33,036 bases of DNA, taken from assembly GCA_964434715.1 (NCBI GenBank), contig CAYSWC010000001.1:1-33036 (forward strand), written 5' to 3'. Shown here one piece after another: positions 5,073 through 17,028 of this stretch. The position numbers and the translations under genes were made by a program. The stretch comes from an uncultured Candidatus Saccharibacteria bacterium. Lineage in GTDB: Bacteria; Patescibacteriota; Minisyncoccia; UBA6257; 1-14-0-10-40-38. Numbering within the stretch: the stretch's first letter is position 1; each line of letters begins with the position of its first letter. Below the pieces are notes generated by a model, which had not been told where the DNA came from, did not search any database, and saw nothing but the letters and a program-made list of their open reading frames with translations.

Positions 5073-5435
5073 CTAACGCTGTTGAGATTCTAATTTGACA
5101 ACTCGCTCTTCCAGCCTTCTAACTTGATTGGCAAGCACTATCAACTCTTGTTCCTGCTTTTTCATAAGTGTTATAAAATCATCCAACTTAGCGAATAGCT
5201 GGCTCACATTATCCTTCATCCATTTTACGTCTGCTTTTAGTTCGGTCACGCCAAGCTCAAGCCTATCAAGCCGAGAATCAACCTTATCAAGTCGGGAGTC
5301 AACCCTATCAAGCCGGGAGTCAACCTTATCAAGCCGCGTGTTGACTGTCTTAAAATCCTCTTGAACCGCCTCCGCAAACGGCTCAAGCGCCTCAACAACG
5401 GCTTCCTTTATGTCTTCTTTGGTTACTTCAGCCAT
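5073..5435 (-). CDS. Coiled-coil hypothetical protein with heptad repeats
   Basis: RLD(K/R)VDS heptads repeated; amphipathic helical composition throughout. Confidence 0.8.
   Translation of the reverse strand: MAEVTKEDIKEAVVEALEPFAEAVQEDFKTVNTRLDKVDSRLDRVDSRLDKVDSRLDRLELGVTELKADVKWMKDNVSQLFAKLDDFITLMKKQEQELIVLANQVRRLEERVVKLESQQR
5257..5340. repeat. Four 21-bp tandem repeats encoding heptads
   Basis: tcaagcctatcaagccgagaa / tcaaccttatcaagtcgggag / tcaaccctatcaagccgggag / tcaaccttatcaagccgcgtg. Confidence 0.85.
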
Positions 5436-5465: not shown

Positions 5466-7139
5466 TCAACTATTCCTTAACCTCACAAAAAACCGCGATC
5501 CCTGTCCTTCTCCCTCACTTTCTGCCCAAATTTCGCCGTGATGGGCGGTAACGATTTCCCGGGCGATGTAGAGGCCAAGGCCGGTGCCTTGAATTTCTTT
5601 CTTCACGCTCTCATCGCGGGTAAATCGCTCAAAAGCTTGGCTTTGCATCTCTTTGGACATTCCCCGACCGGTATCCTCGACTGTGATAAGCACAGTTTCT
5701 GGTTTCTGGTTGCTGGTTGTTGGTCGTTGGTCAACGGTTACTTTAACGTAACCGCGATCTGTATATTTAATGGCGTTATCAATGATATTTTGAATGACCT
5801 GCCGGATTTTTTCCGGATCAGCTTTGATTTTGATGGACGGCAGGGGCTGGTTGGTGATGGATAGTTTAGCATCAGCGCTTATTCTAATGTTCTTAAGAAC
5901 ATTAGAATAAGCTTGGAACTGCAAATCCAAACCTTTAGCCGCTGCCAAGGGTTTAAATTCCTCAACCATGCTAGAGAGCAAGGCCACAATATCAACCTCT
6001 TCAAACTTATATTCCATCTTGCCCTCTTCAATTTTTCTTAAATCCAAAAGATTATTGACCAAGACAATAGTCCGGTCAGCAGACTCTTTAATCTTCTTGG
6101 CTTTGGCTTTGGCCTCATCCGAGACCGGCCCGTAAGTGCCGTCAGAGATCAGCTCGGCAAAACCCTTAATCACCGCCATCGGCGACTTCACCTGATGTGA
6201 GGCAAAACTCAAAAACTCGGATTTTAACTGATCTAACTCCCGAAGTCTTGCATTCGCCGCTTCCAATTCTTTTGTCAATTTCTCTAATCTTTCCCGCTGT
6301 TCAACTTCTTTGAGTACGCTTTTTATTAGAAAAATACCAAAAGTAAAGAAAAGTATAAATATGACGATTCTAAGTATCAACTCAAAAGTATTTTTCGCTA
6401 CGAAAATCTCGAAAAGCGAAACAGACAGAATTACAAAAGTAAGGATCTCAGTCGCGATTGCTTTAACATTCAATAAATGATGACGTAAAATTGCATAGGC
6501 CATACCTACAAATGTTGGCAACATGAAAAGGGGCCCATAGATTATGAATGATGTATCTTTTAAGAAAATTACGAAAAGAAAATTGGTTAATATCAATAGG
6601 AAATAACTAAGAGAAACTCCAATAAGCATGGACCTCCATTGCATTCTTTCCAGGGTTTGTGCTTTTATAAATTTTCTTACAATCAAGATGATTCCAGATA
6701 TTAAAGAAATTACGACGACTAAGGCGAACAAAGGCATTAATGGTCCGGCTATTGGGACTATTCGATCATCAATCGCTTCAATCCTTGTAAAGACATAGGG
6801 CGAGACAGTTGCACCCATCGTTATAAGTAAAAGTAATAAGCTTGCTATAAATAAAGTTCTTTTAATCACTAACCCTCTATTGGGAAAATTGTAAGTAAAG
6901 ATAAAGAACAATACTGCATGGGGTGTAGCGAAAAATAACACAAGTCTAATCCAAAATAGTACTTGTGGTGGATTGATGTTTAAAGAAAAATAATTGGCGA
7001 TAGCCCACAATACAGTTGCGAGGGCGATAAGAAAAAAAAGGATATTACTGATGCTTTTCCGGTCGTGAAAATAAACGACAATACCAATGAAAAAAATCCC
7101 GAAGGCACTTACGAGTGTAATAGCTAAATCTGTAGGCAT
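5466..7139 (-). CDS. Sensor histidine kinase with a multi-TM N-terminal domain (HisKA_7TM-like), HisKA and HATPase_c
   Basis: About 280-aa hydrophobic N-terminus; H-box FLSFASHQVKSP; N-box NIIDNAIKYT; G1 EDTGRGM; G2 GTGLGLYIA. Confidence 0.95.
   Translation of the reverse strand: MPTDLAITLVSAFGIFFIGIVVYFHDRKSISNILFFLIALATVLWAIANYFSLNINPPQVLFWIRLVLFFATPHAVLFFIFTYNFPNRGLVIKRTLFIASLLLLLITMGATVSPYVFTRIEAIDDRIVPIAGPLMPLFALVVVISLISGIILIVRKFIKAQTLERMQWRSMLIGVSLSYFLLILTNFLFVIFLKDTSFIIYGPLFMLPTFVGMAYAILRHHLLNVKAIATEILTFVILSVSLFEIFVAKNTFELILRIVIFILFFTFGIFLIKSVLKEVEQRERLEKLTKELEAANARLRELDQLKSEFLSFASHQVKSPMAVIKGFAELISDGTYGPVSDEAKAKAKKIKESADRTIVLVNNLLDLRKIEEGKMEYKFEEVDIVALLSSMVEEFKPLAAAKGLDLQFQAYSNVLKNIRISADAKLSITNQPLPSIKIKADPEKIRQVIQNIIDNAIKYTDRGYVKVTVDQRPTTSNQKPETVLITVEDTGRGMSKEMQSQAFERFTRDESVKKEIQGTGLGLYIAREIVTAHHGEIWAESEGEGQGSRFFVRLRNS
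5696..5732. repeat. Five heptamer tandem repeats in frame within the HATPase domain
   Basis: tttctgg-tttctgg-ttgctgg-ttgttgg-tcgttgg; encodes DQRPTTSNQKPE. Confidence 0.8.
5877..5912. repeat. Perfect 36-bp palindrome inside the histidine kinase CDS
   Basis: gcttattctaatgttctt|aagaacattagaataagc; encodes AYSNVLKNIRIS. Confidence 0.92.
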
Positions 7140-7146
7140 TATTTAA

Positions 7147-7157
7147 ATTATACCACA
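7147..7157 (-). promoter_or_regulatory. Extended -10 promoter of the histidine kinase (leaderless)
   Basis: TGTGGTATAAT ends 7 nt before the ATG at 7139. Confidence 0.6.
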
Positions 7158-7175
7158 AAACTCGGTTTGGGTTAT

Positions 7176-7215
7176 AAAAAGGCGGCTTTTGGCCACCCTA
7201 AGATTTTGGAGGGTT
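7176..7215. repeat. ~40-bp imperfect direct repeat, copy 1 (copy 2 at 18160-18198)
   Basis: aaaaaggcggcttttggccaccctaagattttggagggtt vs aaaaaggcggctttgggccgcc-tagggtttttgaggatt; 33/40 identical by manual alignment. Confidence 0.7.
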
Positions 7216-7224
7216 GGCGAGAAG

Positions 7225-7254
7225 TTGACGATTGAGTCTAATCAAGCTTATAAT
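7225..7254 (+). promoter_or_regulatory. Sigma70 promoter of the Gre-family gene
   Basis: TTGACG, 18 bp, TATAAT; RBS AAAGGAG before 7324. Confidence 0.55.
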
Positions 7255-7323
7255 TAATATTAGCAACTTAATACTAACAAACCAGGTGCAATAGCCCGGC
7301 TCACCAAGAGAAAGGAGTGAGAA

Positions 7324-7803
7324 ATGCCTAACTATTTTACCCCTAAGGATTTTGCCAAGTTACAAGAGAAAATCCGCAAGACTGAAGCTAAACTAGATGA
7401 AGCGAAACTACAGATAGGAGAAGCCTGTAACCAAGGATCGGATACTTTCCATGATAACTTTCCTTACGAAGAGGCTTTGCGGCAAGTAGCTTTTTGGTCT
7501 CGTAGGTTACAGGAATTCATAGATCTCCAGTGTGATGCTCAAATCGTTTATCCTAGCGAAGAGACAATAAGAGTTGCTATTAGTACAATAGTTACAATAG
7601 AAGATGTAGCTACACACGAGGAGGAAACCTATAGAATTGCTAGCTTCGGGATAGCGATTTACTCTGACGAGAAAGGTGTAGTCTCTTATAACTCCCCCCT
7701 AGGGCAATGCCTCCTGGGTGCGTGGAAAGGTGACATAAGAACCTTACGTCTTGGTGAAAAGATTCGTCAGCTAAGGGTGAAAAAAATCCAAAGCGGTGCT
7801 TAA
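7324..7803 (+). CDS. GreA/GreB family transcription factor with an atypical tip
   Basis: N-terminal coiled coil (YFTPKDFAKLQEK...DTFHDNFPYEEA) and C-terminal VSYNSPLGQCLLG motif. Confidence 0.85.
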   Translation: MPNYFTPKDFAKLQEKIRKTEAKLDEAKLQIGEACNQGSDTFHDNFPYEEALRQVAFWSRRLQEFIDLQCDAQIVYPSEETIRVAISTIVTIEDVATHEEETYRIASFGIAIYSDEKGVVSYNSPLGQCLLGAWKGDIRTLRLGEKIRQLRVKKIQSGA

Positions 7804-7834
7804 GTACTTAACAACTTGGTGCCGCTTATTTTTT
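7791..7834 (+). terminator. Putative intrinsic terminator
   Basis: aagcggtgcttaagt...acttggtgccgctt stem with G-U pairs, followed by ATTTTTT. Confidence 0.55.
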
Positions 7835-7929
7835 AAAATATGATCAGCGGTAAGAATTTAAGATCATTTAATAAGATCGTTCTAGGTCATTTATGAGATG
7901 ATTAAGAACTAGCAGAACATTAACCAACT

Positions 7930-7958
7930 TTTACAATTGAAAATAGACATGGTATTCT
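7930..7958 (+). promoter_or_regulatory. Promoter of the CYTH-CDA-HD operon
   Basis: TTTACA, 17 bp, TGgTATTCT (extended -10), about 30 nt before the ATG. Confidence 0.5.
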
Positions 7959-7987
7959 AAACTAAACCATTAAACAATTTCAAAAAT

Positions 7988-8560
7988 ATGCTGAACAAAT
8001 TAAAAAATCAAAAGAATATCGAGATCGAATATCGCTCAAGATTTAGTGAGGTCGATTATAAAAGACTCTTTGATTTCCTTACTCATCATGCCAAAAATCT
8101 TGGACAAGACGATAAGGATGTATTTTTTTTCATTATGCCAGATAAACTTCTCAAGGTGGTAAATGAGATTGCAAAAAAGAAAGCGAAGATTGTTCTTAAA
8201 CTTAATAAAATCGGTAAAGGAAGCGATTTTGAAGAATTGGAAATACCAATTCGGCAGGATAGCGTAATGCCGGCAGTAAGATTATTCAAACACCTGGAAC
8301 TGACTAATAATATCATGCATTCATTTCAAAAGAGGCATAATTTCTTTTATAGGGGGGTGGAAATAGCGCTTAAGCATAGTGATGAATGGGACTATCATGC
8401 TGAGTTAGAAACTGTTATCAGTAATACTAAAGATAAAAAAGATGCGATTGAGAAAATAGCTAAAGTTACGAAAGAATTAGATATACGCCTGATGTCAGAG
8501 AAGGAGTTACGAGAATTTACCCGTAAAGCTGAGATTAAATACAGGAGAAAAAGAATTTGA
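7988..8560 (+). CDS. CYTH-domain (triphosphate tunnel metalloenzyme) protein
   Basis: N-terminal EIEYR (ExExK-like), FEELEI, QKRHNF and HAELE motifs. Confidence 0.85.
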   Translation: MLNKLKNQKNIEIEYRSRFSEVDYKRLFDFLTHHAKNLGQDDKDVFFFIMPDKLLKVVNEIAKKKAKIVLKLNKIGKGSDFEELEIPIRQDSVMPAVRLFKHLELTNNIMHSFQKRHNFFYRGVEIALKHSDEWDYHAELETVISNTKDKKDAIEKIAKVTKELDIRLMSEKELREFTRKAEIKYRRKRI

Positions 8561-8570
8561 TAGAGCAACT

Positions 8571-9032
8571 ATGAAATTTGTAAATTATAGTTCGCTAAAA
8601 TCGCGGGAGAAAAGATTAATGAAAAAGGCTTTTGAGGCCGCAAAACGTTCTGTGACCTCTGCTAAACATGAGGTTGGATGCGCTATTTTAGACAACGAAG
8701 GTAACATATTCCTAGGCGCAACCAATGCAAGATCCCGAGCAATTGGATCAACTTGTGCAGAACGAATGGCGATGGATCAACTATATTTCCAGAGGGGAGG
8801 GGCACCAATATTTCTAGCTCTCGTTGGTAGATTTAATAGAAAGGGGTGGAAAGAAAGCTACATATGTACGCCTTGCGGTGTATGTCTAGAAATGTTTTCC
8901 GAAGTGATGCGTGATTTTCAAAAAAGGGATTTTAATTTTATCTGTCCTGCTTGGAACAAATCAAAAATTTTAAAAGTTTCCTTAAGCGAACTTTATCCTC
9001 AAATTGGCAAAGGTGATTGGGAAAGATTATAA
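8571..9032 (+). CDS. Cytidine deaminase family protein
   Basis: VGCAIL...GNIFLGATN, TCAERMA and TPCGVC zinc motifs (three-Cys type). Confidence 0.9.
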   Translation: MKFVNYSSLKSREKRLMKKAFEAAKRSVTSAKHEVGCAILDNEGNIFLGATNARSRAIGSTCAERMAMDQLYFQRGGAPIFLALVGRFNRKGWKESYICTPCGVCLEMFSEVMRDFQKRDFNFICPAWNKSKILKVSLSELYPQIGKGDWERL

Positions 9033-9044
9033 TAACCTGCTAAA

Positions 9045-9788
9045 ATGGTAAGTCTCGTCGATTTCGCAAAGAAAAATGAATTACCAAGTATTCAGTTTAT
9101 GGATCCGGCTACCTTAGATTGGATTAACTCTAACAGACCAGATGAATTAAAAAATTCTATTAAAAGATATTGTCCGCGGCCAGACCTTATACCTCAAATT
9201 GTAAAGTTATTACCTCTAAATGAATGGTTCTTTAATAACGAAATAATTGATTCCATCCATGGCTTAAGACATCTTTTAAGGGTAGCTTTTCTTGGAGCGA
9301 CACTGGATTTAGAAATAAAGCTTTCTCAAAAAAATATCATAAACATAATAATTGCGGCGCATCTACACGATATAAGGAGAATAGATGATAAAGGCGATCC
9401 TGGTCATGGCGAAAGAGCTGCCGTATGGTTTAAAGATAATTTAACAAAAATTACCGAATATTTCTCTCTAAATCTTGAAAGTGAAGATATTGAAGAAATA
9501 TTCTTTATGATCAGGTATCATGAAAATCCGTATACGGAAATATCGCATAAAGATGCTTATAAAAAATACAAGACTGTGATAGATATTATGAAAACAGCAG
9601 ACGCTCTCGATCGATATCGTCAACCAAAATTAAAATGGTGGATTAGTGATAATTATCTTGCATTAAAACCTAGCCTTTCAATGAAAAAATTCGCTTATGA
9701 CCTAGTAGTTGGAAGCGAGAGATTAAAATTGGATGGATTAGATAATACATCAAGTGTTTTAGATGCATTTAAAAAACTTCTATGCTAG
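9045..9788 (+). CDS. HD-domain metal-dependent phosphohydrolase
   Basis: IHGLRHLLRV, HLHDIRR, GHGERAA, RYHE, TADALDRYR. Confidence 0.88.
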   Translation: MVSLVDFAKKNELPSIQFMDPATLDWINSNRPDELKNSIKRYCPRPDLIPQIVKLLPLNEWFFNNEIIDSIHGLRHLLRVAFLGATLDLEIKLSQKNIINIIIAAHLHDIRRIDDKGDPGHGERAAVWFKDNLTKITEYFSLNLESEDIEEIFFMIRYHENPYTEISHKDAYKKYKTVIDIMKTADALDRYRQPKLKWWISDNYLALKPSLSMKKFAYDLVVGSERLKLDGLDNTSSVLDAFKKLLC

Positions 9789-11185
9789 AAAATTTACTTA
9801 ATAAATGGAGTGATGTTCACGTTTTCTATAATACCTTCACACACTCCTTGTCTCGTAATAAAACACGTATTGTTAACGACGAATTCCTCTGGAGAAATAA
9901 AATCTTTCAAGCAACTCATGGTCGTCTCTTAATCGAGAATAATTTCTTTAAATCTCTTAAGCAAAATTCGAAAATCTTTTTAGCCCACATTACTCCTAAT
10001 TTACATAATATTCTTGAAAAAAATCATCTCTTCCCAAGCAGTGGATGCCTTGTTGGAAGTATCTATTGCACCCCAATAGATCTTTCTGACGGAAAACTTA
10101 GACTCCACAATCTTGGCGAGTTTATTATAAATCATGAAATGCCAAAATTCTTAGGAAAAGAGTTAATTGCTAAGAATCAGCTCGGAATACTCGTGATTAG
10201 AATAGACTTGCCATCGCAAGCCCGAAATAACTTAATTGGAATTGACTATCTGCGGCTTGGGGAACTACATCTAGAAACATATAAAAATCTAGAATATCTC
10301 CTTTCTCTGGGCGAACGACATTTATTGGAGGATCTTTGTGCTGAACGTATTAGGAAGGCATCTGATTTTTTGAGTTTGTGTAATCGTAAATATTGGCTAA
10401 ATGAAAATGTTGATTCTGTAAACTTTCTCGATATGATGGTTAAGACTACAGAATATTTACCTATTCTCGGTTATTTTTACTTCGAAACTCTGGCTGAATT
10501 CTTAATGCTTTATCAAGATTGTAAAGAGGCAACTAACTACGATTCAATTGGAGAGTTTTGGACTCCGAGCCATAAGAGGATGGTGTTTTCTTTATTCCCA
10601 CAACTTCCAAGTAATTTCAGCCTTCGCCTTTTTAAACCCAAATTCCTAGATGTTGTTTCGTATTTGAAGCGTTATGGATTTTTTACGCATTTTAATACTG
10701 ATGAAATATCAAAATATCTATGTGATAGACTGGCTTTCTTAATAAACGCTCGATTCTTTAAAGAAGATGCAAAACTCATAGAATGGCATAAATTAGAATG
10801 GAAGTTTGACAATCTTACCCAATTTTTTGGTCCGCTACTAGGACACCTTATTCATCGCGAACTTCGTAATTTCGGGAGATATCCTCATTTCTATTTCTAT
10901 TTTGATCAGTTTAAAGCACTACAAATCTGGAATTATTGGAACTATATGCATATCGCAATCCCCTTTAATGGTGTCTTTCCAAAGGGCGAAGTTGGTATTA
11001 ACCCCGCCTATCCCGATCTTCGATATCGAATCTACCAAGGTAAACCCTACGAGAAAAACGGTTATATTTATCTTGAAATTGGGAAAGAATTGGATATCGA
11101 AATTGCTCCACAACTTATTAATTTGAGATTCACTACAATGCGTAATAAAGACATGCCCAGTGCCCGAGCTAATCTTCTTGAGTAA
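9782..11185 (+). CDS. Hypothetical protein, candidate ADP-ribosyltransferase-fold (H-Y-E type) enzyme with a large insert
   Basis: Long ORF overlapping the HD gene end. Pattern LAHIT..LHNIL...LFPS...GSIYCTP...ILVIRID...KGEVGINP. The CDS is well supported; the fold assignment is inference. Confidence 0.6.
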   Translation: MLENLLNKWSDVHVFYNTFTHSLSRNKTRIVNDEFLWRNKIFQATHGRLLIENNFFKSLKQNSKIFLAHITPNLHNILEKNHLFPSSGCLVGSIYCTPIDLSDGKLRLHNLGEFIINHEMPKFLGKELIAKNQLGILVIRIDLPSQARNNLIGIDYLRLGELHLETYKNLEYLLSLGERHLLEDLCAERIRKASDFLSLCNRKYWLNENVDSVNFLDMMVKTTEYLPILGYFYFETLAEFLMLYQDCKEATNYDSIGEFWTPSHKRMVFSLFPQLPSNFSLRLFKPKFLDVVSYLKRYGFFTHFNTDEISKYLCDRLAFLINARFFKEDAKLIEWHKLEWKFDNLTQFFGPLLGHLIHRELRNFGRYPHFYFYFDQFKALQIWNYWNYMHIAIPFNGVFPKGEVGINPAYPDLRYRIYQGKPYEKNGYIYLEIGKELDIEIAPQLINLRFTTMRNKDMPSARANLLE

Positions 11186-11197
11186 AAGTTAAATATT

Positions 11198-11956
11198 ATG
11201 AAAGGTAAAAAAAATCAAGAAAGTAAAGCTCTTAAAAAGATCGAGAATAATTTTGCCCTTTTTAAAAAACATGAAAACATTACTCATGGCTTTGGTAGAG
11301 TAGTCCGGAAACTTGAAAAGGAGATAACAGTACTACGCAGTCATTTAGAAGGCAAAGGCAATTGGGAAAAACAGAGAAAACACTTAGGCTCATCTGCCTT
11401 TGAATGTATACAAATCGGTGGTGGTCAGCATTACCTCCAAGATTTTCTAAATATCGATATTTTCCCTCCAGCCGATCTTATCTACGATGTTAGACAGGGC
11501 TTGCCCCTACCTGATAATTGTTGCACCTTTCTATTCTGTGAACATTTACTTGAGCATATTGATTACCCTGTTTCTATAGAAAAATTTTTATCAGAGTGTT
11601 TTCGGGTACTTAAAAAAGGTGGTCGTTTTGTGATTGGTGTACCAGATGGAGAGTTGGTTTTAAAAAATTATTGTAAAAATGATCAACTTTTTAAGGAAGA
11701 AATCATTAAGCGCTGGTACGGAAGACGCAAAATATCAAATTACATAAACAGTTATATAGACCTTGTTAATTATCATTTCAGGGATATGGATGACGATAAA
11801 ATTTATAATCCTCATTTGTGGGCGTATGATTATAAGAATTTATACTCATTGTTGAAAAAGGCGAGGTTTTCAAACATCAAAAAATGGAGTTTTAACAAAC
11901 TCATCGCAAATCCCAAGAGAAAATGGGGGAGTCTTTATGTCGTCGTAAATAAATAA
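11198..11956 (+). CDS. Class I SAM-dependent methyltransferase (type 11-like)
   Basis: IQIGGG..., LNIDI, DVRQGLPLPD, EHLLEHI, ECFRVLKKGG. Confidence 0.88.
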   Translation: MKGKKNQESKALKKIENNFALFKKHENITHGFGRVVRKLEKEITVLRSHLEGKGNWEKQRKHLGSSAFECIQIGGGQHYLQDFLNIDIFPPADLIYDVRQGLPLPDNCCTFLFCEHLLEHIDYPVSIEKFLSECFRVLKKGGRFVIGVPDGELVLKNYCKNDQLFKEEIIKRWYGRRKISNYINSYIDLVNYHFRDMDDDKIYNPHLWAYDYKNLYSLLKKARFSNIKKWSFNKLIANPKRKWGSLYVVVNK

Positions 11957-11976
11957 GGTCAAATTATTGTAGTAAA

Positions 11977-12618
11977 ATGGTGAGAATTTTTCGCATAAAT
12001 AAAGAACTATTTACCACTATTTTCCGCACTAATCATTGGGGATCAAAAGAATCTGTATCTGGTCCCGGTGCGGAAATGAAGCCGACGAGAAAAATAAGAA
12101 GAGTACTCCCCAAAATAATTAAGCGTTATCATATTCGAAGTATGCTTGATATTCCTTGCGGTGATTTTAATTGGATGAAAGCTGTAGATCTTCGAAGATT
12201 AGATGAATATACCGGTGCCGATATTGTGTCCGAACTAATTGCGTCAAATATTAAAAAATATAGCGACGGACAGAAAAAATTTATCGAGTTAGATATTATA
12301 AACAATCCCTTACCAAGGGTTGACCTTATTTTCTGTAGAGATTGTTTTGTGCATTTAAGTAATAAAGACATCTGCAAGGCTTTAAAAAATATAAAGAAAA
12401 GCGGTTCCGCATTTCTTCTAACTACTACGTTTATCCGTGAAGACAAAAATAAAGACACCAGGGAAGGTAAGTGGAGGCCTATCAATTTGAATATAAAACC
12501 TTTTAATTTAGCTCCTTTTATTGAATACATTAATACAGACTTTAGGGATGGAGGGAGAAATCATCCTGGGAATGGAATAGCAATTTGGAAAATCTCCGAT
12601 TTACCTGATAACTATTAA
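11977..12618 (+). CDS. Class I SAM-dependent methyltransferase
   Basis: WGSKESVSGPG, LDIPCGDFNWM, YTGADIV, DLIFCRDCFVHL. Confidence 0.88.
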   Translation: MVRIFRINKELFTTIFRTNHWGSKESVSGPGAEMKPTRKIRRVLPKIIKRYHIRSMLDIPCGDFNWMKAVDLRRLDEYTGADIVSELIASNIKKYSDGQKKFIELDIINNPLPRVDLIFCRDCFVHLSNKDICKALKNIKKSGSAFLLTTTFIREDKNKDTREGKWRPINLNIKPFNLAPFIEYINTDFRDGGRNHPGNGIAIWKISDLPDNY

Positions 12619-12678
12619 CTAACACATTTTTTCTAGGGTCACTTCCCGGACAATTTTAATAAGAAAAAGGAGGTTCTC

Positions 12679-13269
12679 TCACAACCTCCTTTTAATTATT
12701 TGGGCAAGCTGTTCGGGGGCTTTTTGCGGCATACCGTCAATATTCTCGATGTGATGGGAAGGGATTCTAAATGATTCAGACGCCTTCAACATCACCTCAG
12801 TAGACATAAGTTGTGCTCTTTTTATAAAATCAATCTTTTCTCGCAAAGATCTCTGTTCATTACTAAATAGACTACGGTTGATCCTTTTATTGATCAATTC
12901 ATCATAAAGAATCCGCCGCACGATTGATTCTGGGTTACCAATCAAAAGTATAAGTACTCTACAATAACTATACCATAGTCCATAGCTGGGAGCAATCTTT
13001 CCATTAAACACTTTGACGTAATGGGCTGTAACTATGGTTGTTTCTACCCCACTTTCTTTGCTTAAAGCACAGAAAAGATCTGTAAGAGCTCTTTCTTTCA
13101 CTTTCTTTGGAAGAATTCTTAGCTTGACGTAATCGCCGTCAGCGATACCAAGCCACTTCATGAGCTCTGAGGAACCGTCCAGTACACGCACCGATAACCT
13201 TTTCCGAAGCGCTTGTGCAATTGAGGTCTTACCAACGCCATTAACGCCGCCTAGAAAAAGCAAACCCAT
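12679..13269 (-). CDS. P-loop nucleoside monophosphate kinase-like protein (archaeal adenylate kinase-like)
   Basis: LFLGGVNGVGKTS, VTAHY, SIVRRI. Start moved to ATG 13269, which follows RBS AGGAGGA. Confidence 0.8.
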   Translation of the reverse strand: MGLLFLGGVNGVGKTSIAQALRKRLSVRVLDGSSELMKWLGIADGDYVKLRILPKKVKERALTDLFCALSKESGVETTIVTAHYVKVFNGKIAPSYGLWYSYCRVLILLIGNPESIVRRILYDELINKRINRSLFSNEQRSLREKIDFIKRAQLMSTEVMLKASESFRIPSHHIENIDGMPQKAPEQLAQIIKRRL

Positions 13270-13394
13270 TTTATCCTCCTTTTTGTAAATGTTCGTATAA
13301 ACTAATATAGCACGGAGTTCTAAGCATTGCAAATCAAGATTATTTCCTTATCTACTTTTATTTGCTGCCGGGTTTGAATTAACCCCTAAAGGAG

Positions 13395-14480
13395 TTACTG
13401 AATTATCGAATCTAATTTTAAGCTATATCTGCCTGAAGGTGTTTTTTTGCCGGTTGAGATTTGACGAATGAGATAGCACAAAACAGCGCCGCGCAGAAAG
13501 GATGATTCGGCCAACTGCGGTATACCGGCGAGTTTTGAACCAACGAGCAAAAATGACTTCTTTAATCTTTGGGTAAGATATTTCGTCCCCATAAAGTCTC
13601 GCGCCAAAAGCATTTTATTCTTAAAAGGCAAAGTTTTCAGTTTATCGCTCTTTGCAATATCAATTATGGATTGCTTAAGATATCCGCCTAAAAGCGGCAG
13701 CTCTGGATTCTGGTCAAATCTTTCAATATCAATAATCACATTCGGGCCGTTGCCGGTAACCATCACAACCGGGATTCGATACTGCCTGGCTTTTTCTCTT
13801 ATTAAAATTTTAAGCCTTAAATTATCCATCTCTTCAATTAATACATCTGTCCTGGGCTTTAAAAGGAATTCTTCTAGACTATCTGGTTTTATGCCGTCTC
13901 TAAAAACTTCTATTTTTGCGAAAGGATTAATTTCGTAAACTTGCCGCGCGGAAAGCACTGCCTTATTTAAACCGAGATCAGTTATGCTTGCTCTAAATCT
14001 ATTAAAATTGGTAAGCGATAAAACATCATTATCAGCAAATTTCATCTCAAGCCCTCCGCCTTCTAAGGCAAGGCACACTGCCGCCGGGTTGCCCACATTT
14101 AATCCCGCGATGCCGATTCTAAATTGAGCGAACTTTTTTTGGTCAGATGGTAAAACTAAATTTTCATTTCTTGAAGTCTTAAGGCGAAGATAGCTATCTT
14201 TTTCTAGTACATGAACTAAAGACGACTGCCATGAATAGTAAATCCATTTTCCCTGTTTCGGATCATTGCCATACTTTCTAGGTTCTCGCGTAAGAAGTTT
14301 AGGATTTTTAACTAAATCCAATTCTCTAAGCTGTTCAGAAAATTCATCTACGACATTTACAATCTTTTTCTGCTTTAATAAATTTCTTACCTTACTAAGA
14401 TCGTTAACTTTTTTAAAATCAAAAATCAACGGTTTATAAGAGTTATCGCGTGAATTTAGAAATTTACCAAAAATTTTCAT
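13395..14480 (-). CDS. ThiF/E1-like adenylyltransferase, Rv1355c-like, lacking the fused nitroreductase domain
   Basis: WIYYSW...VHVL...SRNENL N-terminal signature, IGIAGLNVG, ADNDVLSLTNFNR, NKAVLSARQVYEINP, EEMD, GIPQLA. Confidence 0.88.
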   Translation of the reverse strand: MKIFGKFLNSRDNSYKPLIFDFKKVNDLSKVRNLLKQKKIVNVVDEFSEQLRELDLVKNPKLLTREPRKYGNDPKQGKWIYYSWQSSLVHVLEKDSYLRLKTSRNENLVLPSDQKKFAQFRIGIAGLNVGNPAAVCLALEGGGLEMKFADNDVLSLTNFNRFRASITDLGLNKAVLSARQVYEINPFAKIEVFRDGIKPDSLEEFLLKPRTDVLIEEMDNLRLKILIREKARQYRIPVVMVTGNGPNVIIDIERFDQNPELPLLGGYLKQSIIDIAKSDKLKTLPFKNKMLLARDFMGTKYLTQRLKKSFLLVGSKLAGIPQLAESSFLRGAVLCYLIRQISTGKKTPSGRYSLKLDSIIQ

Positions 14481-15538
14481 GGTATCAGCTTTGCCTCAAC
14501 CGGATGACGCAAATTCGGCCTCTGTTCAAAATTCATATAACCGACGCAAAATAAAAGCTGTGCTACGAGGCCAGAATTTATAACCTTTTGCACTTGCTTG
14601 TATAAATCACCTATCTCTATTGAAGCTACAAAAATTGAGGTTTTGAGTTCCTTGGAATTTAATTCCAACGTTATCCGCTCAAATAATCTCCCCACCTCTA
14701 GCCAGCTTAAAGGAGAATTCTCTTTGGAGCTGATGATTAGGACGAGCGGTGCGGAACTGATACTTTTGTAATTAAGCGCTCCCACCGCTTTTCCGATATT
14801 AAAAAAACGGACTAGAGTAGGAAAAATCAGAGAAATCAAAGCCGGCATTCTTAAAGAATAACCGGGTATGCCCTCTCTCTTTTTTGAAAAACTGCTGTTC
14901 ATCCAAGAGGACATCTCTTTTCTAAAATTAGAGCTTTGGTAGGCAATTCTTAAACCTTCGGCGGTGAGTGTCGCTAATTTATTTATTTTTTCCTTATCGT
15001 GAACTAAATCGAGCCGTAATTCAGGAAATTTATTATCGAGCGACTGAATTTTTTTAATAATTTCTGATTCAACTGGTTTCTGCTCAAAAATACCTCTGAC
15101 ATTAACTCTTTTTGGTACGGCATCCAAAATATCTGCTAACTCTTTGCTAATTTGTATATCTTTTCTCTCTAAATCTCCGAAAGTAACTTCGGCAACTAAA
15201 TTATCCTTTAAGATATAATTCAAATTTCTAAAAACTTTAAAATAACTTGCAGCCACAATAATATTTTCCAAAAGACAGCCAAAACTTATATAGAGATCTC
15301 GCTTAATTGGATCGGCTTCCTTGATTGTATATTTCTCGGAGTCATAAAAAATCTTGCAAGAGTCATTTTCTATTTTAAAAAGCCAAGGTTGGCTATTATG
15401 CGTTGAAGGGGCTAAAATGCCGTATCGTAAAATAAACTTTATTTTCTCAAAAGGAGCCTTGAGTTTGAAAAAATCACCCTTATTTATATTCCGAAGTTCA
15501 AAATCTAGATTGGACATTAATCTTATTTCTTTACCCAT
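14477..15538 (-). CDS. Acg-type nitroreductase family FMN oxidoreductase
   Basis: LAPSTHNSQPWLF, DPIKRDLYISFGCLLEN, KRVNVR, EVGRLFER. Confidence 0.88.
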   Translation of the reverse strand: MGKEIRLMSNLDFELRNINKGDFFKLKAPFEKIKFILRYGILAPSTHNSQPWLFKIENDSCKIFYDSEKYTIKEADPIKRDLYISFGCLLENIIVAASYFKVFRNLNYILKDNLVAEVTFGDLERKDIQISKELADILDAVPKRVNVRGIFEQKPVESEIIKKIQSLDNKFPELRLDLVHDKEKINKLATLTAEGLRIAYQSSNFRKEMSSWMNSSFSKKREGIPGYSLRMPALISLIFPTLVRFFNIGKAVGALNYKSISSAPLVLIISSKENSPLSWLEVGRLFERITLELNSKELKTSIFVASIEIGDLYKQVQKVINSGLVAQLLFCVGYMNFEQRPNLRHPVEAKLIP

Positions 15539-17028
15539 TTTTGTTTGATGCCAGGTTTGAAGTGAAGCTGATGCTCGGCGGGCCAGAAAACGAGCTTGGG
15601 CAGGGCTCGCTCTTTTAAGAAGTTATAGAGTTCGCGGTATTCCGAGTTTTTAAGCCGGAGATTGGCAACGACCTGGCTCAAAAGTATCTTCTGAACTTTT
15701 TTGGGTATCTTGCGATGTTTGCGAAGTTCAAGATTGACTTCCAGATATTGATTTTGCCGACGATCGTATTTGGTAATCAGGGTAAGCTTTCCGGTAAGGT
15801 ACTTATTCATCGGCGGTTCAATTAAAACCTCGCGAATCGTCTCCGGATAAACTTGAAGACCATAAAGAGTCGTTGCCATATCAACTCGCTCATAGATATA
15901 GACGAAGGGTAATTTATATATAAAATTTGCTATGCCGTGTGCGCGCGCCGACTTAAAGAAATCAATGCCGTGATTTCGGCATTTCTCAATCGCTTCTTTT
16001 AAAGTAAGCACCCCGCCGTGATCCCCGATGCCGTAACGGATAAGCGGTATAGCATTATCGCCAGTAAGAAAAAGTTCCCCTCCCTGTTCATCAAAACTTA
16101 TGAAACGAGGAATATATTGGGCCAGCGTTGGAGTACGCTGGATTTGATGAAAAATATCGGCAAATAGACGCCAACGTCCCATGGCAAGCTGCCGAATCAA
16201 AATACTCGCCGGAGTCTCAAATGCCATCACGCCAATATCGGCGCTGCCGTATATATTCATGGTGTCAAGGAGAGGATTTGTTATATTGACATGTTTCGCT
16301 AGATAGTCACGGAATTTTTCGGTGAAGGCTTCAGCTGCAAAAATAAAGCGAATATTCAACTTCCGGATATTGATACCGTTATGCGGTGCCTCATCAATAA
16401 TATCCTTAAGAAACGGCGCGTAACCTACTAAAATAATCTCTTTGAAATGATTCCCGATCCGCCGTAAGGCATTAAAAATTTCACGCTTGTTAATGCCCGG
16501 CGTAAGTATAGAAACCGGATAGCCGGCCTCGCGCATAAACTCAAACGACTGATAAGTGATCACCCCGCCAATCCAAACACCCATCCCAAAACAAACCAAA
16601 ATAAGAGTTGGTCCCTGCACACTCTTCTCGCTATTCCGAAAAAAAAGCTCGTGCGTCACCGCTGCCTGCCAATCAACTCGATAATCGCGGGCAAAGTAGA
16701 AAGGTTCGCCGGTCGAGCCGGAAGTTGCGGTAAAAACAAGTGGATGCTTAAGCGTACCATCCCAGCAAAGTTTTTCGAACGGGTATTCGCGGAGATAATT
16801 TTTTTTACTGGTAGGCGGTACTAAACGAAGATCGCCTGAAGTCTTAATTTTATCGGGTTGAATCTTGTTTTTCTTCAAAAAATCGCGATAGGCCGGCACC
16901 CGGCGCGCCGCTTCGTGAAATAATTTTATCGGTCGCAACGCCTGCTCACGCAGCCAAAAAGACTCGGGTTTCCGGCGTATAAGCTGGATTACAGCATTGG
17001 TGGCTGTCTGAACCTGATTCACTTTCAT
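15523..17028 (-). CDS. Phenylacetate-CoA ligase (PaaK)-like adenylate-forming enzyme
   Basis: VPAYRDFL, TSGSTGEP, YGSAD and PLIRYGIGDHG adenylation motifs. Confidence 0.9.
   Translation of the reverse strand: MKVNQVQTATNAVIQLIRRKPESFWLREQALRPIKLFHEAARRVPAYRDFLKKNKIQPDKIKTSGDLRLVPPTSKKNYLREYPFEKLCWDGTLKHPLVFTATSGSTGEPFYFARDYRVDWQAAVTHELFFRNSEKSVQGPTLILVCFGMGVWIGGVITYQSFEFMREAGYPVSILTPGINKREIFNALRRIGNHFKEIILVGYAPFLKDIIDEAPHNGINIRKLNIRFIFAAEAFTEKFRDYLAKHVNITNPLLDTMNIYGSADIGVMAFETPASILIRQLAMGRWRLFADIFHQIQRTPTLAQYIPRFISFDEQGGELFLTGDNAIPLIRYGIGDHGGVLTLKEAIEKCRNHGIDFFKSARAHGIANFIYKLPFVYIYERVDMATTLYGLQVYPETIREVLIEPPMNKYLTGKLTLITKYDRRQNQYLEVNLELRKHRKIPKKVQKILLSQVVANLRLKNSEYRELYNFLKERALPKLVFWPAEHQLHFKPGIKQKWVKK

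Follow-up and report, generated by a model that had tools for sequence, protein, structure and literature searches.

A candidate new family of ADP-ribosyltransferase-fold proteins linked to an HD-domain phosphohydrolase in Patescibacteria and actinomycetes

Introduction

The described systems closest to the one reported here are DarT (PF14487), an ADP-ribosyltransferase (ART) that modifies thymidine in single-stranded DNA, Tpt1/KptA (PF01885), an NAD+-dependent RNA 2'-phosphotransferase, and the SidE effectors of Legionella. Our subject is a 467-amino-acid (aa) hypothetical protein, hereafter the ART-like protein, encoded in 33,036 nt of DNA (the window, meaning the whole stretch analysed; contig CAYSWC010000001.1 of assembly GCA_964434715.1) from an uncultured Candidatus Saccharibacteria bacterium. 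A first-pass annotation, made from the sequence without database searches, had read it as a split H-Y-E type ART whose product might be processed or reversed by a neighbouring HD-domain enzyme.

DarT is a protein of about 210 aa that belongs to the H-Y-E class of ARTs and stands in a two-gene toxin–antitoxin pair, its partner being a macrodomain protein (DarG) or a NADAR protein. DarT also has an extra catalytic Arg (PMC8883491). Tpt1 acts on nucleic-acid phosphates and requires Arg16, His17, Arg64 and Arg119 (PMC6097658). In SidE effectors the ART, which is of the R-S-E class, makes ADP-ribosyl-ubiquitin, and a linked phosphodiesterase (PDE) then cleaves the pyrophosphate, so that phosphoribosyl-ubiquitin remains; ADP-ribose adducts are cleaved in the same manner by NUDT16 and ENPP1, and in the review passages behind these statements (PMC8883491) the pairing of an ART with a PDE is described only for the Legionella SidE effectors.

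Here we report that the ART-like protein most likely founds a new family of ART-type enzymes which use NAD and always act together with a neighbouring phosphodiesterase, as part of a small set of genes for the alteration of nucleotides. In the fuller reading that we favour, to which we assign a probability of roughly 60%, a new H-Y-E ART family forms a fixed unit with an HD phosphodiesterase and ADP-ribosylates a nucleotide-type acceptor, after which the HD enzyme trims or removes the adduct.

Results

A conserved family with an H-Y-E triad

The open reading frame (ORF) begins with ATG, and its placement, its length and every motif string quoted in the first-pass annotation are present in the window: residues 65–98 contain IFLAHIT-PNLHNILEKNHLFPS-SGCLVGSIYCTP, residues 135–142 read GILVIRID, and residues 391–418 contain IAIPFNGVFPKGEVGINP...YRIY. 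The two halves of the motif had been put about 260 residues apart; the split itself stands, and the distance measured here is about 250 residues. The codons of the candidate catalytic residues lie at 9986–9988 (H69), 10064–10066 (Y95) and 10988–10990 (E403).

A word-indexed search returned 361 homologues at E ≤ 0.001. The best, in Patescibacteria, Streptomyces and Longispora, show 40–55% identity across about 97% of the length, and all the source names given for them are 'hypothetical protein'. An exhaustive search found 226 relatives among 50%-identity cluster representatives. H69, T71, Y95 and E403 are invariant in 31 close homologues. In a broader alignment of 84 full-length representatives (22–47% identity), H69 is the sole fully invariant column (84/84), position 71 is Thr in 80 sequences and Ser in three ([ST] in 83 of 84), position 95 is Tyr in 81 and Phe in three, and position 403 is Glu in 83. 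The conservation of H, Y and E on which the first reading depended exceeds chance. About 20 further positions, among them S86, G88, H109, N110, G160, E235, E258, K265, G354, K401, G402 and P408, are kept in at least 90% of these sequences, and the triad therefore appears to belong to a more extensive conserved site, of which it is the most strongly kept part, rather than to be a unique feature. No Arg column of the 84-sequence alignment reaches 90% conservation.

An ART-like core divided by a helical module

The AlphaFold2 model of the ART-like protein, built on the alignment of the 31 close homologues (pLDDT 88.5, pTM 0.89), divides it into two half-cores. The N-terminal half comprises strand 64–71, which ends in H69-I-T71, helix 74–80, strand 94–102, in which Y95 follows G92-S93, strand 105–108 leading into H109-N110, helix 110–130, and strands 135–142 and 152–154. 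Eleven helices then span residues 160–388, and in the C-terminal half E403 directly precedes strand 404–406, which is followed by strands 414–425 and 428–437. An ART core interrupted by a very long insertion would be expected to show this order of elements, and the helical insert sits where ART enzymes usually carry a target-recognition loop. The proposed placement of H-x-T on the first strand of the core holds in this model.

The list of structures matching the model is dominated by ART-fold proteins, each covering both halves of the core and reaching residues ~423–440. They include diphtheria-toxin homologues, Xre-RES, NatT, EcPltA, pertussis toxin and LT, as well as the PARP domains of plant RCD1 and SRO1, PARP1, 3, 4 and 13, and the tankyrases. 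The split β-sheet of ARTs appears to be present in the model, and the suggestion of an ART fold with a large helical insert is borne out to this extent. An atlas feature search gave sub-threshold leads (0.84) to Arr and to DarT/PARP clusters, from an atlas model that was itself poor (pLDDT 0.31).

Profile comparisons with hhalign used reference ART families drawn from genomes (five Tpt1, three Arr and four DarT sequences, the last deepened to 108 by homologue search). Against DarT, the N-terminal half of the ART-like protein (residues 55–160) aligned with 57% probability (E 1e-4) over 60 columns, corresponding to residues 63–125, and the full-length protein with 29% (E 6e-4, 60 columns). The positive control, Tpt1 against DarT, reached 32–46% (E 2e-4 to 5e-4, 23–40 columns), while 18 negative controls, in which parts of the ART-like protein or known ART families were compared with the CYTH enzyme, HD enzyme and methyltransferase (MT11) of the same operon (Table 1), stayed at or below 0.4% (E ≥ 0.14); the CYTH, HD and MT11 profiles against the deep DarT profile gave 0.1% (E 0.44–0.65). 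In the DarT alignment H69-I-T71 falls on the DarT H-x-T and L-H109-N110 on the DarT L-H-D, with the P-N-L-x-x-I-L helix that follows H-x-T in register, and the same His aligns to the H-G-T of Tpt1 (E 0.027, 21 columns).

As topology with motif placement, enrichment of structure matches and profile similarity agree, we consider it very probable that the protein has an ART fold, is of the H-Y-E type by motif placement, and is closest in sequence to DarT. These supports are independent of one another and individually moderate. Y95 would be the canonical ART Tyr by its position, not by alignment.

The HD-domain partner

Directly upstream of the ART-like gene, and overlapping its start by 7 nt, lies a gene for an HD-domain phosphohydrolase. 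A locus survey gave 170 confirmed genome stretches with a relative of the ART-like gene, of which the best 80 were kept as the loci counted below. By tblastn of the window neighbours the HD gene is present in 78 of the 80, the two misses being loci that end at a contig end. PF01966 matched 19 of 22 HD orthologues, which share the invariant residues H72, H76, H108-D109, H121, H159 and D189, the classical H..HD..H..H..D set.

The two proteins also occur as natural fusions. In P0171 (775 aa; HD 29–252, ART-like 351–770) and P0216 (770 aa; HD 19–239, ART-like 342–765) the HD domain comes first, in P0234 (686 aa; ART-like 25–439, HD 441–679) it comes second, and P0385 (933 aa) has a NUDIX box near residue 66 ahead of HD (193–416) and ART-like (510–931) regions. 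P0171, P0216 and P0234 are each a single metagenomic gene call, and P0385 was found on 23 contigs, one source being a Candidatus Roizmanbacteria genome. Furthermore, the HD gene stays directly upstream in two of three plasmid loci examined (E 2e-75 and 4e-61), in which the CYTH and methyltransferase genes are absent; the HD and ART-like genes are thus the constant unit of the module.

The HD model (pLDDT 94.4) has as its seven best VIA matches SdeD (13.7), SidE (13.5), 5zq3, a PDE–ubiquitin complex (13.1), SdeC (13.0) and lpg1496 (12.4, 12.3 and 11.9), each aligned over 185–193 residues and followed by the generic HD protein 2pq7 at 10.8 and by HD-GYP and cyclic-nucleotide PDEs at 10.8 and below, a ranking in which the larger size of the SidE PDEs may partly explain their higher Z. 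TMq values of 0.41–0.45, with E 0.06–0.08, were given by Foldseek for DupA, for Dup1 and for SdeD (the last with ADP-ribosylated ubiquitin). The idea that the HD enzyme would process or reverse the ART product survives these checks, given its near-universal presence, the fusions and the SidE-PDE-like model.

Two loci carry altered copies of the HD gene. At the patescibacterial locus L009 (5016–6648) the gene is apparently truncated, with a tblastn match that ends at 5525 and an ORF of 197 aa, and an integrase/transposase gene (rve_3, 5539–6648, minus strand) is inserted beside it; the downstream ART-like gene is intact. At L011 a 101-aa ORF (1792–2097) that looked like a fifth conserved gene was rejected as such: it repeats the N-terminus of the HD protein in truncated form, over about 80 residues at 62% identity to the full gene of the same locus, and lies about 4 kb upstream of the module.

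Comparison with described systems

With DarT the ART-like protein shares the H-Y-E class and a position beside a gene that could process the adduct, and its H-x-T strand, N-L-x-x-I-L-x-x-G helix and L-H-[ND] motif align with those of DarT over 60 columns. However, it carries a helical insert of about 230 residues, its partner is an HD protein rather than a macrodomain or NADAR protein, its genetic setting is a multi-enzyme nucleotide module and not a two-gene pair, and its family keeps no Arg corresponding to the extra catalytic Arg of DarT (PMC8883491). With no match to the DarT model PF14487 among the 84 family members at E ≤ 1, a different partner, no conserved Arg and twice the size, it was rejected as a DarT.

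Tpt1 aligns with the protein at H-x-T and the next helix and belongs to the same broad ART clade, but its Arg-His-Arg-Arg set has no conserved counterpart in the family. The protein was likewise rejected as a Tpt1, on the missing Arg-His-Arg-Arg set, the lack of a Pfam match and the coexistence of Tpt1 in five of five carrier genomes checked. It shares the motif logic of classical PARP and diphtheria-toxin domains but is not one of them.

As in SidE effectors, where the PDE is linked to the ART domain, HD and ART-like regions occur in one polypeptide in the four fusions. In contrast to SidE, the ART-like protein is of the H-Y-E type, has nucleotide enzymes as neighbours and no ubiquitin context, and the SidE PDE has no sequence-level match to the HD partner with its classical residues; the carriers of the module are free-living or episymbiotic prokaryotes.

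Composition of the gene module

The features of the operon are collected in Table 1. Its genes follow one another at distances of 10–20 nt, except where the HD and ART-like genes overlap by 7 nt and where 184 nt separate the GreA-like gene from the next, and a promoter-like site (11/12 matches) lies at 7225–7254.

Table 1. Positions in the window of the ART-like gene, its parts and the associated operon features.
Feature	Position	Strand	Evidence
GreA/Rnk-like protein, possibly first operon gene, loosely associated	7324..7803	+	PF01272, E 5.5e-13
CYTH (triphosphate-tunnel) enzyme, invariant E12-x-E14-x-R16 start	7988..8560	+	PF01928 in 14/19 orthologues, best E 2.8e-10
Cytidine/dCMP-deaminase-like zinc deaminase, accessory	8571..9032	+	PF00383, E 1.5e-11
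HD-domain phosphohydrolase, obligate partner, shape nearest SidE-type PDE domains	9045..9788	+	PF01966, E 3.1e-6
ART-like gene, 467 aa, probable first member of an ART-fold (H-Y-E type) family that lacks annotation	9782..11185	+	ORF list, homologues, AlphaFold2 model
N-terminal half of probable ART core (residues ~60–156)	9959..10249	+	AlphaFold2 secondary structure, hhalign to DarT, conservation
Helical insert, ~230 residues (helices spanning 160–388), near-invariant E235, E258, K265, G354	10250..10951	+	
C-terminal half of probable ART core (residues ~391–440), P400-K401-G402-E403 then strands	10952..11101	+	AlphaFold2 model, E403 conservation, structure matches to ~423–440
Class I S-adenosylmethionine (SAM)-dependent methyltransferase (MT11), core member	11198..11956	+	PF08241, E 1.1e-8
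Second SAM methyltransferase, accessory	11977..12618	+	phrog_3382, E 1.9e-55
Bidirectional terminator-like hairpin closing the operon	12665..12693	.	11-pair stem, T runs on both strands
P-loop (AAA_17, AdkA-like) kinase, accessory, convergent with the operon	12679..13332	-	PF13207, E 9.9e-6

Besides the HD and ART-like genes, the CYTH gene (78/80 loci) and MT11 (77/80) are nearly always present. The N-terminal signature of CYTH enzymes is ExExK, and the start found in the module is the Arg variant of this Lys signature; the atlas neighbours of MT11 are generic class I methyltransferases only. Other genes of the window operon are scattered: the second methyltransferase is found in 20 of the 80 loci, the AdkA-like kinase in 11, all of low G+C content and in several cases (e.g. 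L001 and L006) on the operon strand, and the cytidine-deaminase-like gene in six, again all low-G+C, with a related gene in the plasmid locus L102. GreA-like genes adjoin the module in four of 17 low-G+C loci. Relatives of the second methyltransferase (~40% identity over 79% of its length) occur in 45 Synechococcus and three Mycobacterium phage records, where they are annotated as hypothetical or as methyltransferase.

The high-G+C (actinomycete) loci add NDK (62/63), a small TPR-like protein (62/63) and NUDIX (52/63), and across all 80 loci NDK is present in 64, NUDIX in 54 and a nucleotide kinase of some kind in 73, although the 63 high-G+C loci are related to one another and these NDK, NUDIX and TPR counts are therefore not independent events. 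All five genomes checked have a housekeeping-type NDK elsewhere (165–175 bits) and a second, divergent copy (128–135 bits), which in genome G001 lies within the contig range of the module locus L040; in these five, the NDK of the module has the look of an additional, dedicated copy. To the low-G+C loci belong genes for a ThyA-like protein (4/17), NDK, NUDIX, a TylF-type O-methyltransferase, a carbamoyltransferase and a histidine phosphatase, of which the ThyA-like, TylF-type, carbamoyltransferase and histidine phosphatase genes are each confined to single lineages. For the accessory NUDIX proteins NCBIfam gave a mixture of names, every one of them below cut-off.

T4-type phage pathways of nucleotide hypermodification comprise a ThyA-like hydroxymethylase, a dNMP kinase, a deaminase and an NTP pyrophosphatase. 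The module has accessory genes of the same kinds (ThyA-like, cytidine-deaminase-like, NMP kinase/tmk, NDK, NUDIX/CYTH, and methyl- and glycosyltransferases), but those pathways have no counterpart of its ART-like and HD pair, and none of 50,697 phage records contains the ART-like family. Taken together the module fits a nucleotide-tailoring set, and a neighbourhood of nucleotide enzymes fits the nucleobase or small-molecule acceptor that the first-pass annotation had entertained.

Individual loci showed further variation. Two CYTH genes per module occur at L002 (5953–6522 and 11305–11853) and L019 (5684–6256 and 8996–9559), and in the latter a ThyA-like gene lies between the ART-like gene and the second CYTH gene. 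One of two NUDIX genes beside an actinomycete module (L028, 9140–9934) has weak N-terminal helix-turn-helix matches (HTH_3, E 7.5e-4), a combination that recalls ADP-ribose-sensing Nudix-type regulators such as NrtR (PMC9503650). In the window organism itself the only NDK match (contig C2, 39494–40021, minus strand; loci L099/L100) is split into model positions 1–50 and 54–133 within one open frame of 210 aa, which suggests an insertion inside the NDK domain.

Distribution and mobility

The genome of the window organism (793 kb in 56 contigs, 86% complete) has one copy of the ART-like gene. The family is present in only three of 201 genomes of the same order and in none of 10 of the same family, in 22 of 201 Streptomyces genomes, where it falls into two score classes, and in two DPANN-archaeal metagenome-assembled genomes (MAGs) and one gammaproteobacterial MAG. 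A divergent branch (28–32% identity) is carried on six large actinomycete plasmids; copies are borne by large linear plasmids, and one of these copies has a gene with a Pycsar effector annotation within a few kb. The neighbours of this branch include genes for tmk, NUDIX, GT2 and GT4 glycosyltransferases, an NDP-sugar epimerase and dehydrogenase, a TauD-type dioxygenase, SAM methyltransferases and a 3'-5' exonuclease. Two IMG/VR contigs contain the gene with no phage hallmark genes within 7 kb, and two of their 19 ORFs match PHROGs (a regulator and an ABC transporter).

G+C content is 0.356 in the module and 0.44 elsewhere in the window, and transposases flank or interrupt the module at L009 and L041. 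The module is a sparse, horizontally spread accessory set of Patescibacteria, actinomycetes and DPANN archaea. The low-G+C dip in the window (0.32–0.40 over about 10 kb at 6000–16000, with flanks of 0.42–0.53) is wider than the module and takes in a sensor-kinase gene as well as the ThiF and nitroreductase genes described next.

Neighbouring genes outside the module

Downstream of the operon lie a ThiF-family gene (13395–14480) and a gene for an Acg-family FMN nitroreductase (14477–15538), overlapping by 4 nt, and adjoining them a gene for a PaaK-like adenylating ligase (15523–17028), all on the minus strand. These were rejected as members of the module, being present beside it in 0 of the 80 loci. 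The model NF005901, which describes the fused Rv1355c family, is matched in its N-terminal half by the ThiF protein (E 8.4e-86) and in its C-terminal half by the nitroreductase (E 1.5e-18); the pair has the appearance of one protein, fused elsewhere, that is here divided in two. Upstream, at 5073–5435 on the minus strand, the window encodes a 120-aa protein with four tandem seven-residue repeats (VDSRLD[KR]) in a predicted coiled coil.

Discussion

Starting from the observed conservation, the fold resemblance and the linkage in operons and fusions, we infer the use of NAD+, the order of two steps and the kind of acceptor as follows. The ART-like protein, with its catalytic β-core split by a helical module of ~230 residues that probably holds the acceptor, would use NAD+ to place ADP-ribose on that acceptor and release nicotinamide. 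The HD enzyme would then cut the ADP-ribose pyrophosphate, leaving a phosphoribosyl group and AMP, or would otherwise trim or remove the adduct. A nucleotide, a nucleoside or a nucleobase, whether free or within nucleic acid, would be the most likely acceptor, and the kinases, CYTH, NUDIX and methyltransferases may then process the product or police the pool.

Several results weigh against this interpretation. The ART-like protein has no match in Pfam or NCBIfam, and PADLOC and PHROGs gave none either; none of the 84 family members matches any ART Pfam model at E ≤ 1, and searches of PDB sequences with the single sequence and with the profile returned nothing. Foldseek of the whole model against PDB and BFVD gave nothing at E ≤ 0.001. 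The hhalign probability is only 57% and concerns the N-terminal half only; residues 385–445 gave no signal against DarT, Tpt1 and Arr (≤ 0.6%), and hence E403 is assigned as the catalytic Glu by its position. This set-up also missed two true ART pairs (Arr–DarT and Arr–Tpt1), and with a C-terminal half lacking signal the comparison is insensitive and silent on E403. On the side of the HD enzyme, the SidE_PDE Pfam model PF12252 reached no better than E 0.17, in two of 22 orthologues, and the HD profile found only generic HD hydrolases among PDB sequences, no SidE. Since there is no family-model match and the profile leads only to generic HD proteins, we do not place the partner in the SidE PDE family, which, judging from its model, it appears to resemble in shape and in partnership. 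Finally, a scan of the window and of seven loci for Rfam families returned none, and neither a riboswitch nor any other hint of the metabolite came to light; the size of the SidE PDEs and the relatedness of the actinomycete loci, both noted above, count on the same side.

Other explanations share parts of this evidence. Were the pair a DarTG-like toxin–antitoxin or anti-phage system, the ART toxin would modify DNA bases and the upstream HD antitoxin would remove the adduct, with the remaining genes as bystanders or regulators; DarT is after all the best sequence-profile relative, a candidate antitoxin gene overlaps the ART-like gene from upstream, and the patchy distribution, the low G+C content of the module, the transposases at L009 and L041 and the linear-plasmid copies, including the one near the Pycsar-annotated gene, are what such a system might show. 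We nevertheless think it unlikely. The module has four conserved genes, not two, across three phyla, and dedicated kinases and NUDIX travel with it; the putative toxin and antitoxin are fused in both orders and also with a NUDIX; the family has no Arg conserved to at least 90% that could act as the extra catalytic Arg of DarT (PMC8883491); no PADLOC model matches the ART-like, HD or CYTH protein; and no Macro, NADAR or ARH match was found among 40 flanking ORFs scanned. At L009, moreover, the HD gene is apparently truncated beside an intact ART-like gene, which would be unexpected for an essential antitoxin. Distinctly unlikely, in our judgement, is an ART-like fold without transfer, that is, an NAD+ glycohydrolase, a base-exchange enzyme or a cyclase, which would make a soluble signal derived from ADP-ribose or deplete NAD+, or else a binder of some other nucleotide. 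Several of the best structure matches are not transferases but NAD+-degrading ART-fold toxins (MbcT, Xre-RES, NatT and VPA0770); NUDIX, HD and CYTH enzymes could degrade or tailor a soluble nucleotide product, and no ART family was found for the protein by sequence. RES-type NADases, however, use an R-E-S set, unlike the H, Y and E kept here, the conserved helical module (E235, E258, K265) looks like an acceptor-binding device, and methyltransferases and kinases suggest a built-up product rather than plain NAD+ destruction.

The set of triphosphatase, kinase, phosphoesterase and methyltransferase also recalls RNA repair cassettes, and one could imagine an RNA-end healing or capping system in which a Tpt1-like ART acts on RNA 2'- or 5'-phosphates, with CYTH as RNA triphosphatase, a polynucleotide kinase, HD as cyclic-phosphodiesterase and a methyltransferase marking the repaired end. 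The region that Tpt1 shares with the protein (H-x-T/N-L-x-x-I) and the GreA-like genes beside some low-G+C modules would agree with this, but a canonical Tpt1 is encoded elsewhere in five of five actinomycete genomes checked, the essential Args of Tpt1 have no Arg counterpart conserved to at least 90% in the family, no RNA ligase is present among the flanking ORFs scanned, and NDK, ThyA-like, cytidine-deaminase-like, tmk and NUDIX enzymes act on mononucleotides; we regard it as very unlikely. A protein-directed machine of the SidE kind, which would ADP-ribosylate a protein and then link it or trim the adduct via phosphoribose, we hold to be highly improbable, even though the HD partner is structurally nearest to SidE PDE domains and the HD-then-ART order of fusions is the PDE–ART order of SidE (PMC8883491). 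Near the module neither a ubiquitin-like protein nor any other candidate protein substrate is conserved; the ThiF-like gene of the window is absent from all 80 loci; the conserved partners are all nucleotide enzymes; and the R-S-E class of the SidE ART (PMC8883491) is not that of the H-Y-E protein described here.

A more specific proposal is that the ART-like protein and its SidE-PDE-like partner make up an NAD+-driven phosphoribosyl transferase for nucleobases, which we put forward as doubtful. The ART would join a base, free or in DNA or RNA, to ADP-ribose, and the PDE would free AMP and leave base-ribose-5-phosphate, a route to a non-canonical nucleotide that would be independent of phosphoribosyl pyrophosphate. 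Because ART reactions invert the anomeric carbon (PMC8883491), this product might be α-linked. It would be raised to the triphosphate by module kinases (AdkA-like, NDK) and decorated by methyl-, glycosyl- or carbamoyltransferases, with CYTH and NUDIX keeping the pool in check. If this were true, Patescibacteria, DPANN archaea and Streptomyces would contain a modified nucleotide, or a hypermodification of nucleic acid, of a kind not known before, and the two-step chemistry of ART plus PDE, so far known from effectors of Legionella, would be an old and widespread prokaryotic invention.

We found no description of the family or its operon in the literature searched, which left out many subscription papers and is thus no proof that they are unpublished. 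Returning to the reading that we favour, in which an H-Y-E ART modifies a nucleotide-type acceptor and the HD enzyme trims or removes the adduct, its wider meaning is as follows. The ART-like protein, the central orphan of the module, gains a likely enzyme class. If the reading is correct, the ART superfamily would gain a new branch, with 40–55% identity between its main patescibacterial and actinomycete members and an architecture, a catalytic core split by a large helical module, to which the solved structures searched offer no close parallel, and the pairing of an ART with a SidE-like phosphodiesterase would occur well outside Legionella. For NAD+-dependent chemistry of a new kind on nucleotides or nucleic acids, the module is a candidate that can be put to the test, in Patescibacteria and DPANN archaea as well as in the genetically easy Streptomyces.

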